From: Escherichia coli
GTDB taxonomy: Bacteria > Pseudomonadota > Gammaproteobacteria > Enterobacterales > Enterobacteriaceae
DNA: 64,000 nt
Assembly: GCF_045037415.1 (NCBI RefSeq)
Contig: NZ_CP173438.1
Direction: 5' to 3' (one strand)
In this document: positions 36,118-37,828 of the stretch, piece after piece
How positions within the stretch are numbered: the stretch's first letter is position 1
Layout of the letters: each line of letters opens with the position of its first letter
Notes under the pieces: generated by a model
Databases searched by the model: none
The model's input: the letters and a program-made list of their open reading frames with translations, nothing else
Told to the model about the DNA's origin: nothing
Translations under genes and position numbers: made by a program

Positions 36118-37038
36118 TTACTCCAGCACCCTCTCTAGCTTATTCACCGCCGCCACATACTTCGCCGGATTTTTATCTTTAAGCATCGCCAGATTGCGTT
36201 GCTTCCAGCGAATAGCCGGAAGATGCTGAATTTCAGGATAGCGATACCGCGACCAGTCAGGGCTGTTTTGCTTAAAACTGAGCAAGAACTCGCGATCCAG
36301 ATCCGTAAAATGTGACTTCAACGCCTGCGGCAGCAAAGTCGTTACTGACAGAAGCGATTCCAGCGACGTTTCCTGCTGAGTCATCCCCGAAAATTCCTGA
36401 GCGTATAACGTGGCAATCCGATCTGTATCCCAGTTTGAAGCCAGCAACTCGGCAATGGGACGGGGATGGCCTGCCAGATAACAAAGAAAACCGTCAAAAA
36501 TTTCGCGCGTCAGGCCCGGTCTCCCCAGCATATTCAACACATCAAACAGATCGCGCGGATGCTGACGATCAAGCGCAGCACATATTTTACCGCCATAAAG
36601 ATCCGCCAGCGAGACGACACTCATGGTGGTGAAGCCATACTCCATTTCCACACGTTCGCACACAGGCATTTCTGCCGGAGGCAACAACAGCCCGCGCCAG
36701 ACCGGGCTAACCTCGATCTTAATCTTTGCATCAGCGGTATTCACAATGATGCGCTTTTCATCCGCTTTATTTTCCTGCCGAATCGCGGTGATCCCCGGTC
36801 TGCCGTTCAGCGATGCAGTAATTCTCTTCAAAGCGTCGTTGATCGCCGCCAGATCGGTATCGCGATCCGCAAAGCTCTTATACGCCAGATCGATATCCAC
36901 CGATAGACGGGGGAAATCCTGCACAAATAAATTGATTGCTGTGCCGCCTTTCAACGCGAAACAGGATTCCTTCGCCACATGCGGCAGAGCGGCCATCAAC
37001 AGTTTAACCTGCCTGGCATAGCTATCACGCAGATCCAT
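36118..37038 (-). CDS. AbiEii/DUF1814-like nucleotidyltransferase (type IV toxin-antitoxin / abortive-infection toxin candidate)
   Basis: Nucleotidyltransferase motif GG-x13-DIDL (LKGGTAINLFVQDFPRLSVDIDLAY); start taken at MDLRDSY (ATG 37038), overlapping the upstream gene by 14 nt. Confidence 0.55.
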   Translation of the reverse strand: MDLRDSYARQVKLLMAALPHVAKESCFALKGGTAINLFVQDFPRLSVDIDLAYKSFADRDTDLAAINDALKRITASLNGRPGITAIRQENKADEKRIIVNTADAKIKIEVSPVWRGLLLPPAEMPVCERVEMEYGFTTMSVVSLADLYGGKICAALDRQHPRDLFDVLNMLGRPGLTREIFDGFLCYLAGHPRPIAELLASNWDTDRIATLYAQEFSGMTQQETSLESLLSVTTLLPQALKSHFTDLDREFLLSFKQNSPDWSRYRYPEIQHLPAIRWKQRNLAMLKDKNPAKYVAAVNKLERVLE

Positions 37039-37828
37039 CTTCGACTCCTTCCGGTTTAAATGTGCGGGGAACAGTAATTTGATAATCCGGCTCCAGCCAG
37101 CCACCAGGTATGATTTGCCGCTTTCCCGTACCTGTTTCTATACCGCTTTGATCAAGATACTGAAAATAAGGGTGTCCATTACGCCGGGCAAGGTAAAGCA
37201 TCACCCGGTTGGTTTTAATCGAATGACTGGCGCGAAGCAGTGCCTGCAATTTGCGTGGGCTGAGAAGATTCCCCCCCTGAAACAGAGCATCGGCATGTTC
37301 GAACGAGATCAACGAAGGAACGCCGCAGGCGATCTCATACGCGGCCAGTTCCGGTGCACTGCCTGCTAACTGCCGGTCGCCAATTTTCAGTTCCGTAGTA
37401 AATGACGAGACATCAACGGTAAGGCCCGATGTATACAGCGTGATAAATGTTGCTGATTGTTCGAAGGCAGCAAACCATCCCGGCAGTTTGACGTAAGCCG
37501 GAAGCGCGAGCCAGACCTGCGGCTTACCCGGTTCGGTATAGTGCGCATGGCCCTGAAGCGCAAGGCTGGTTAGCCCCGCCACCCGAACAGGCTTTTCCCA
37601 CTGTGTTTGAAGGCAGTAAACCGCGTCTACCCAATCCGGCTCACGGCCCGTCCGGCAGTACACACCGTGAGCGATGCGCCTGAGCCAGCCATTCTGAACA
37701 TAGAGATAAGAAAGCTTACGATCTACGCCATTGCGGGTAAGCCATGACTGGAGCAGCACCTGACCGGGTAGCGTGTTTTGCATCAACCAGTTTAGATAGT
37801 TTGGCAAATGTCGCTCCTGAATAGACAT
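37025..37828 (-). CDS. AbiEi-like antitoxin/transcriptional regulator candidate (267 aa)
   Basis: Immediately upstream of and overlapping the DUF1814-like gene, the arrangement typical of AbiEi-AbiEii pairs; family assignment from memory, not verified. Confidence 0.45.
   Translation of the reverse strand: MSIQERHLPNYLNWLMQNTLPGQVLLQSWLTRNGVDRKLSYLYVQNGWLRRIAHGVYCRTGREPDWVDAVYCLQTQWEKPVRVAGLTSLALQGHAHYTEPGKPQVWLALPAYVKLPGWFAAFEQSATFITLYTSGLTVDVSSFTTELKIGDRQLAGSAPELAAYEIACGVPSLISFEHADALFQGGNLLSPRKLQALLRASHSIKTNRVMLYLARRNGHPYFQYLDQSGIETGTGKRQIIPGGWLEPDYQITVPRTFKPEGVEDGSA

Follow-up and report, generated by a model that had tools for sequence, protein, structure and literature searches.

A probably intact AbiE operon of the AbiEi_3/AbiEii subtype on a small thrW island of Escherichia coli ST131

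Introduction

AbiE toxin-antitoxin (TA) and abortive-infection operons are bicistronic, with the antitoxin gene directly upstream of the toxin gene, as described for AbiEi-AbiEii of Streptococcus agalactiae (Dy et al. 2014). The toxins belong to the DUF1814 nucleotidyltransferases, which are set apart from other pol-beta nucleotidyltransferases by the x15 spacing of motifs I-II (hG[G/S]-x15-DhD; motif II also contains an Arg); in S. agalactiae AbiEii, mutation of motifs I-IV abolishes toxicity and nucleotide binding, and AbiEi autoregulates through inverted repeats (Dy et al. 2014). Here we analyze a stretch of 64,000 nucleotides (nt) of E. coli DNA (contig NZ_CP173438.1; the whole stretch is called the window), in which two overlapping genes, abiEi and abiEii, very probably form an intact AbiE operon of the AbiEi_3 plus AbiEii (DUF1814) subtype, carried on a small thrW island of sequence type 131 (ST131).

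The biochemistry of the family is under active study. S. agalactiae AbiEii adds U over C to tRNAs. Binding of AbiEi induces autophosphorylation of AbiEii at T65 and thereby neutralizes it, and reclassification of the system as type VII has been proposed (bioRxiv 10.64898/2026.01.19.700257). In Mycobacterium tuberculosis, the 3'-CCA ends of tRNAs are extended with pyrimidines by MenT1 and MenT3 and with G by MenT4. AbiE-2 of Serratia sp. ATCC 39006 (AbiE-A2/AbiE-T2) has been validated in E. coli as a TA pair, with 10^6-fold killing that is rescued only by the cognate antitoxin, and its toxin perturbs tRNA pools; the same report places AbiEi_3 and AbiEi_4 in different Pfam clans (PMC7725324). 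Phage resistance is conferred by Lactococcus lactis AbiE and by its relatives RlegTA and SanaTA, and the AbiE pair of E. coli CFT073 changes susceptibility to several BASEL phages (PMC12488582).

Results and Discussion

Family assignment, motifs and predicted folds

The toxin of the window, AbiEii, matched the Pfam family AbiEii (PF08843) over residues 14-221 with an i-E value of 3.9e-36, and the PADLOC profile AbiEii PDLC02290 from end to end with an E value of 4.6e-115. Motifs I and II read K30-G31-G32, then 15 residues, then D48-I49-D50; within the segment R44-L45-S46-V47-D48-I49-D50-L51, R44 stands four residues before D48. The spacing is GG-x15-DxD, and the GG-x13 given in a sequence-only reading of this DNA has to be corrected accordingly. 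Motif III (K151-I-C-A-A-L-D-R158) agrees with the K-x2-A-a-x2-R-like pattern and motif IV (R162-D163-L-F-D166) with the +DxxD pattern. In an alignment of 50 homologues at least 53% identical to AbiEii, the residues G31, G32, R44, S46, D48, D50, E109, K151, R158, R162, D163 and D166 are invariant, and all except E109 belong to motifs I-IV. All catalytic motifs of AbiEii are intact. Two residues ahead of the first motif-II Asp stands S46, at the position of the phospho-acceptors T65 of S. agalactiae AbiEii, S78 of MenT3 and T39 of MenT1; the Ser/Thr that characterizes type VII toxins at the sequence level is present here as S46-V47-D48. The invariance of S46 in the 50 homologues suggests that this residue has a function.

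The antitoxin, AbiEi, matched AbiEi_3_N (PF17194, residues 12-97, 9.8e-29) and AbiEi_3 (PF11459, residues 102-254, 1.1e-33), as well as the PADLOC profile AbiEi PDLC02227 (7.5e-78). Both component models of an AbiE system, in the sense of PADLOC and DefenseFinder, are present in adjacent genes. These hidden Markov model (HMM) searches bear out the assignment to the AbiEi/AbiEii families, for which motif recognition had previously been the ground. Neither protein matched an entry in NCBIfam or in PHROGs; the names given to them by NCBI come from other evidence. A chance or decayed pair of open reading frames (ORFs) was rejected in view of family E values of ~1e-29 to 1e-115, the integrity of the motifs and the ratio of nonsynonymous to synonymous substitution rates (dN/dS, see below). 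The pair is already known, since RefSeq annotates both products (accessions in Table 1).

AlphaFold2 (AF2) models were built from the alignments, with a mean pLDDT of 91.3 for AbiEii and 91.7 for AbiEi. The AbiEii model has the bi-lobed, MenT-type pol-beta nucleotidyltransferase fold, and its closest structure is MenT4, at 14-15% sequence identity. When the AbiEi model was compared by Foldseek, the best match was Rv2827c/MenA4 (1ZEL; E 3.6e-9, TM score 0.57-0.61), followed by S. agalactiae AbiEi (6Y8Q; E 3.3e-6, TM score 0.50-0.62). The predicted architecture is a winged helix-turn-helix (wHTH) domain at the N terminus and a C-terminal antitoxicity domain of the AbiEi/MenA4 kind, so that, in the models, the AbiEi_3 lineage shares the two-domain architecture of the characterized COG5340 antitoxins. 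Structure prediction thus gave a MenT4-like toxin and a MenA4/AbiEi-like antitoxin, in line with the earlier assignment. What ties this subfamily to its characterized relatives is the comparison of folds together with the HMMs of Pfam and PADLOC.

Of the described systems, Serratia AbiE-2 resembles the window pair in that the gene of an AbiEi_3 antitoxin precedes that of a DUF1814 toxin in which the serine S46 is conserved. It comes from a different genus and the likeness is drawn from the published description; Serratia homologues in the databases are ~45-55% identical to the window proteins. The S. agalactiae pair shares the antitoxin-then-toxin order, motifs I-IV with the x15 spacing, the motif-II Arg and Ser/Thr, and a wHTH antitoxin whose fold matches the AbiEi model. 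However, its AbiEi is shorter (~195 amino acids, aa) and belongs to another Pfam family (AbiEi_4/COG5340), its phospho-acceptor is Thr65 instead of Ser46, and the likeness between the toxins is seen only at the level of HMMs or folds. M. tuberculosis MenA4-MenT4 (Rv2827c-Rv2826c; 1ZEL, 6Y56) differs in its low identity (14-17%), in an antitoxin of the COG5340 lineage rather than AbiEi_3, and in the use of GTP by MenT4. The CFT073 pair (c3681-c3682; PMC12488582) likewise lies in an E. coli defence/virulence island, but at another chromosomal site, beside the kps capsule genes. A further E. coli pair, adjacent to BREX genes (L008), is also an overlapping AbiEi_3 and AbiEii couple, at another chromosomal site and with an antitoxin 45% identical to that of the window.

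Organization of the gene pair

The features of the locus are listed in Table 1. The longest ORF of abiEi gives 267 aa from an ATG at 37826-37828, while the abiEii ORF spans 36118-37104 on the minus strand and gives 306 aa from the ATG at 37036-37038. The stop codon of abiEi occupies 37025-37027, and the resulting overlap of the two genes is found identically in the RefSeq annotation of an identical genome. Antitoxin gene directly upstream of toxin gene is the arrangement of the AbiE operon (Dy et al. 2014), and it is read here directly from the gene order. The Shine-Dalgarno sequence of abiEii (AAGGAG-N6, at 37045-37050) lies within abiEi. The overlap, together with this internal Shine-Dalgarno sequence, suggests that abiEi and abiEii form a translationally coupled bicistronic operon. 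An overlap of start and stop is kept throughout the subfamily: it measures 14 nt in Pectobacterium, 20 nt in loci farther removed, and 8 nt both in a second paralogue of E. coli and in loci from IMG/VR.

Table 1. Coordinates of the AbiE locus and of the features around it in the window
Feature	Coordinates	Strand	Basis
abiEii, DUF1814 nucleotidyltransferase toxin, 306 aa	36118..37038	(-)	RefSeq WP_000365807.1
abiEi, antitoxin/transcriptional regulator, AbiEi_3 subfamily	37025..37828	(-)	ORF, Pfam, PADLOC, AF2, Foldseek, RefSeq WP_001295795.1
Overlap of abiEi stop and abiEii start, 14 nt	37025..37038	(-)	direct sequence reading
Candidate AbiEi operator or hairpin sequestering the ribosome-binding site: imperfect inverted repeat GTTTAAATATTT (37835-37846) / AACTATCTAAAC (37790-37801)	37790..37846	(-)	repeat search
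Candidate sigma-70 promoter of the abiE operon: -35 TTGCTG (37871-37876), 17-nt spacer, -10 TACACT (37848-37853)	37848..37876	(-)	inference from alignment
Degenerate TGTCGA-N7-TCGACA palindrome, ~100 nt upstream of the abiEi start	37902..37920	(-)	
thrW-integrated island, ~11.7 kb, carrying abiE	34422..46086		tRNA, direct repeat, integrase
Type I restriction-modification operon: hsdR 38070/38091-41189, hsdM 41183-42820, hsdS 42810-44834	38070..44834	(+)	PADLOC REase_I, MTase_I

The true start of abiEi is probably not the ATG but a TTG at 37805-37807, which would give a product of 260 aa. This start is favoured because it is preceded by an AGGAG-N6 Shine-Dalgarno sequence (AGGAG at 37814-37818), because the RefSeq product and nearly all homologues in the databases are 257-260 aa long, and because the upstream ATG is not conserved: it is replaced in two related loci (L005 and L007), in which the Shine-Dalgarno sequence and the TTG are kept. 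The description of a 267-aa protein followed by one of roughly 306 aa with a 14-nt overlap is hence accurate for the overlap and the second protein, whereas 267 aa is the length of the longest ORF. The Shine-Dalgarno sequences of both genes are strong.

Upstream region

When five upstream regions (four E. coli lineages and Pectobacterium) were aligned, the columns CTTG and CTAnA were invariant. These blocks would fit the -35 and -10 elements of a promoter of abiE, and the promoter in Table 1 is placed on this ground. The inverted repeat GTTTAAATATTT/AACTATCTAAAC brackets the 5' untranslated region, the Shine-Dalgarno sequence and the start codon of abiEi, with arms of 23 nt that are 74% complementary. 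Distant AbiEi_3 loci (L008 and L011-L016, with antitoxins 30-45% identical to that of the window) show the same GTTTA...TAAAC geometry, with a left arm that falls inside or next to the promoter, a right arm within the first ~10 codons, and a repeat score that 0 to 58 of 500 shuffled sequences matched. By analogy with IR1/IR2 of S. agalactiae the repeat may plausibly be an operator of AbiEi, although the S. agalactiae operator itself, an inverted repeat of 11-23 bp, is not recognizable in the window. Farther upstream, the palindrome TGTCGA-N7-TCGACA is perfect in two relatives, L002 and Pectobacterium L007, with arms lengthened to 11 bp in the latter; the copies of the window and of L003 are degenerate.

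Six of the distant AbiEi_3 loci, from IMG/VR (L011-L016), have a good TTGAyw-17 nt-TATAwy promoter ~40 nt before the abiEi start. Their -10 element ends 6 nt ahead of the ATG, without a Shine-Dalgarno sequence, which suggests that these abiEi mRNAs are leaderless. The inverted repeat of these loci, TGTTTAyTTT / AAAATAAACA, falls in the promoter spacer and at about codons 7-11.

Distribution, selection and points against the assignment

Positions 30001-50000 of the window are identical to E. coli O25b:H4 (ST131) NZ_CP015085, except for an IS1 insertion and one extra A. Hundreds of ST131 genomes carry the pair with 100% identity, under the RefSeq names AbiEi/AbiEii, and of the 5426 complete E. 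coli genomes 832 (~15%) have it. According to published surveys, 82% of ST131 genomes possess AbiEii, which is confined to three E. coli defence hotspots. In the phage collection tblastn gave a single weak match (30% identity) and IMG/VR held eight distant loci only (30-42% identity); the AbiE pair is not typically phage-borne. One E. coli plasmid, NZ_CP146678.1 (64 kb), carries the whole pair at 20782-22492 with 95.7% identity; all other places are chromosomal (832 versus 1).

With 93-96% identical alleles from other lineages of E. coli as the comparison, abiEi has a dN/dS of 0.15-0.16 and abiEii one of 0.08-0.10; with Pectobacterium, the value for abiEi is 0.07. By these substitution ratios both genes are under purifying selection. 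Together with the conserved start/stop overlap, the ratios argue for a functional, translationally coupled operon.

Several results weigh against an intact, working AbiE operon. First, searches of PDB chains by phmmer and hmmsearch with both proteins returned only chance matches (E > 0.04), so that fold comparison was needed to reach the solved structures. Secondly, a consensus sigma-70 promoter scan of the abiE upstream region gave 0 promoter-like sites (one internal terminator-like site reported by the sigma-70/terminator scan was disregarded), and the inverted repeat of the window, taken alone, is not significant, its score being matched by 41 of 500 shuffles. Thirdly, abiEii is split by ISEc52 in one ST131 genome (NZ_AP022326.1), and an AbiEii of 175 aa, 100% identical over 56% of the length (P0035, P0095), occurs in 79 database sequences. 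Such disrupted and shortened copies indicate that the toxin is dispensable and that its loss is tolerated and recurrent. Finally, the characterized relatives do not all behave alike: for MenT4/MenA4 neither phosphorylation nor a stable complex was detected and MenT4 uses GTP, and in E. coli the AbiE system of S. agalactiae did not confer resistance to 32 coliphages. Because the closest structural relatives are the exception of the family, a phosphorylation step at S46 is uncertain, and because of the failure of S. agalactiae AbiE to protect, a phage-defence phenotype is not guaranteed.

Some of these points could be taken to mean that the module is a decaying relic on a degraded island, no longer toxic or expressed. 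Apart from the blank promoter scan and the interrupted or shortened abiEii of some strains, the palindrome upstream is degenerate in the ST131 copy, and the surroundings are degraded, with an integrase pseudogene and an hsdS gene damaged by IS1 and a frameshift (see below). But both ORFs are intact with every catalytic residue kept, dN/dS is 0.08-0.16, the sequence is identical across hundreds of genomes and the Shine-Dalgarno sequences of abiEi and abiEii are strong. Decay of this kind is very improbable.

Proposed mechanism

The mechanism of the intact AbiE operon is modelled on S. agalactiae AbiE, M. tuberculosis MenAT1, MenAT3 and MenAT4, and Serratia AbiE-2. By analogy with these systems AbiEii would be a Mg2+-dependent nucleotidyltransferase that, most likely, extends tRNA 3' ends. 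The wHTH domain of AbiEi would repress transcription of the operon, while its C-terminal domain would neutralize AbiEii post-translationally. For the latter, the likeliest route would be that AbiEi docks over the active site and induces autophosphorylation of S46; steric occlusion or a route of the MenA4 type is a possible alternative. If the supply of antitoxin is upset by a phage or by loss of the island, free AbiEii would halt translation, and this arrest would either abort the infection or kill cells without the island.

Two labels that the pair had been given need qualification in this light. The family had been called GTP-dependent, which fits only early binding data and MenT4, whereas the nucleotides that S. 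agalactiae AbiEii, MenT1 and MenT3 attach to the 3' ends of tRNAs are pyrimidines. It had also been called type IV, a label now challenged by the proposal that S. agalactiae AbiE is type VII.

It is possible, though doubtful, that the toxin is instead MenT4-like, that is, a GTP-using tRNA nucleotidyltransferase of broad specificity, neutralized without phosphorylation or stable binding (a true type IV or unknown mode) rather than a pyrimidine-adding toxin of type VII. The best structural matches of toxin and antitoxin, MenT4 and MenA4, are cognate partners; MenT4 adds G to most tRNAs; and it has the equivalent serine, S67, yet neither its phosphorylation nor a complex with MenA4 was detected. 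On the other hand, an identity to MenT4 of only 14-15% means that specificity is not transferable, the invariance of S46 across the 50 homologues suggests a function, and S46 is also kept in Serratia AbiE-T2, whose partner is an AbiEi_3 protein. Neutralization through S46 is retained as the likeliest, if uncertain, route for AbiEi_3/AbiEii. In structure this subtype is akin to MenAT4, the least understood of the mycobacterial pairs.

With respect to phage, the resistance seen with other members of the family makes a phage-defence phenotype of the window pair plausible by analogy. An intact, selectively maintained AbiE module in the pandemic ST131 clone is relevant to work on host range in phage therapy.

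The thrW island and the neighbouring restriction-modification operon

The borders of the island that carries abiE are marked by a 45-nt direct repeat of the 3' end of tRNA-Thr(CGT), at 34422-34466 and 46011-46055. Abutting abiEii is a tyrosine integrase gene (34622-35953) that matches a PHROG integrase and is a pseudogene with an internal stop (RefSeq); in the RefSeq annotation, additional C-terminal integrase fragments adjoin each copy of the repeat. Beyond hsdS, near the end of the island opposite the integrase, two RNAs matched Rfam above the gathering score, the Hfq-binding RNA isrK at 44938-45015 (+; 68 bits) and the C4 antisense RNA at 45037-45125 (+; 71.8 bits). RNAs of the isrK and C4 kinds are typical of the immunity regions of P1/P7/P4-type phages. 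A coding sequence that RefSeq names 'ash family protein' (~45032-45190) overlaps the C4 match and may be a mis-called ORF.

The reading of the island as an intact P4-like satellite was rejected, since its annotation lacks psu, sid, delta and alpha. The placement of defence cargo between psu and int that marks the P4-like hotspot (Rousset et al. 2022) is likewise not found here, with neither psu nor any other P4 structural or regulatory gene annotated. The island is at most a heavily deleted P4-like remnant.

The type I restriction-modification (R-M) operon is transcribed divergently from abiE, as the sequence-only reading had it; the hsdR ORF opens at 38070 and RefSeq places the ATG start at 38091. 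In this strain hsdS is split by a 768-bp IS1 element at 43087-43854, flanked by an 8-bp target duplication (GAAGGTTA), and carries a +1 frameshift in the A-run at ~44505-44513 (A9, compared with A8 in NZ_CP015085). The operon is intact in NZ_CP015085. With these two lesions of hsdS, the type I R-M system is probably inactive in this strain unless the frameshift is a sequencing error and IS1 excises; the ninth A might reflect phase variation or a sequencing error in the homopolymer. The two-system defence arrangement proposed earlier therefore describes the adjacency correctly, but one of the two systems is degraded.

This adjacency is not intrinsic to the AbiE module. The junction between abiEi and hsdR is kept in 548 of the 832 carrier genomes, while in other E. 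coli lineages (L002 and L004, 11006-14215) a 1069-aa RT_UG5-nitrilase DRT reverse transcriptase faces abiEi (PADLOC, E = 0), and in another (L005, 11013-12511) a DUF4747 protein of 323 aa and a 165-aa protein do so. The R-M neighbour is lineage-specific. The 165-aa protein had no PADLOC match, and the DUF4747 pair could be an uncharacterized defence system; the variable slot beside abiE may hold further uncharacterized defence candidates.

The position of abiE bears on what the operon does. It occupies the edge of the island nearest the integrase, beside a slot that is filled differently from lineage to lineage (type I R-M, UG5-nitrilase DRT or the DUF4747 pair), and AbiE might act mainly as an addiction module, stabilizing the thrW island and its swappable defence cargo by post-segregational killing without being anti-phage itself. 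An AbiE system is reported to stabilize an integrative and conjugative element in Streptococcus suis (PMC11062541), and the missing protection against 32 coliphages by S. agalactiae AbiE points the same way, as does the persistence of purifying selection on AbiE although the integrase pseudogene leaves the island fixed. Yet an island incapable of excision leaves an addiction module little to select against, L. lactis AbiE, RlegTA and SanaTA show phage-resistance phenotypes, and the separate AbiE pair of CFT073 alters susceptibility to several phages (PMC12488582). The roles in addiction and in defence are, moreover, not mutually exclusive. A function mainly in addiction is considered rather unlikely, and the TA/abortive-infection operon remains our preferred description of the locus.

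A bolder proposal is that AbiEi_3/AbiEii is the fixed anchor of a recombination slot in the thrW island through which whole defence systems are exchanged, and that it neutralizes by the MenAT4 mechanism. This combination is quite improbable. If true, it would make the E. coli pair an accessible system for working out MenAT4 antitoxicity, and the neighbouring slot a place to look for new defence genes. What is new in the present locus is mild, namely the structural likeness to MenA4/MenT4 and the variable defence slot.

Related genes were also met in other settings. In Pectobacterium (L007, 1948-3656), an AbiE pair of 87% identity lies ~1.3 kb from genes for a cytosine DNA methylase and an HNH endonuclease, with a 67-aa ORF between; this is a further AbiE near an R-M-like system, of a different type. 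In Serratia liquefaciens (L006, 5001-5774) an orphan AbiEi_3 antitoxin/regulator gene, 47% identical, adjoins mutS without an adjacent AbiEii gene. The BREX-adjacent E. coli pair mentioned above (L008; GCA_016552665.1, 6001-7684) is a second AbiEi_3/AbiEii paralogue, 45% identical and with the 8-nt overlap, and it lies in a different defence island together with BREX genes (PglZ, BrxL), a PLD-domain protein and an integrase.

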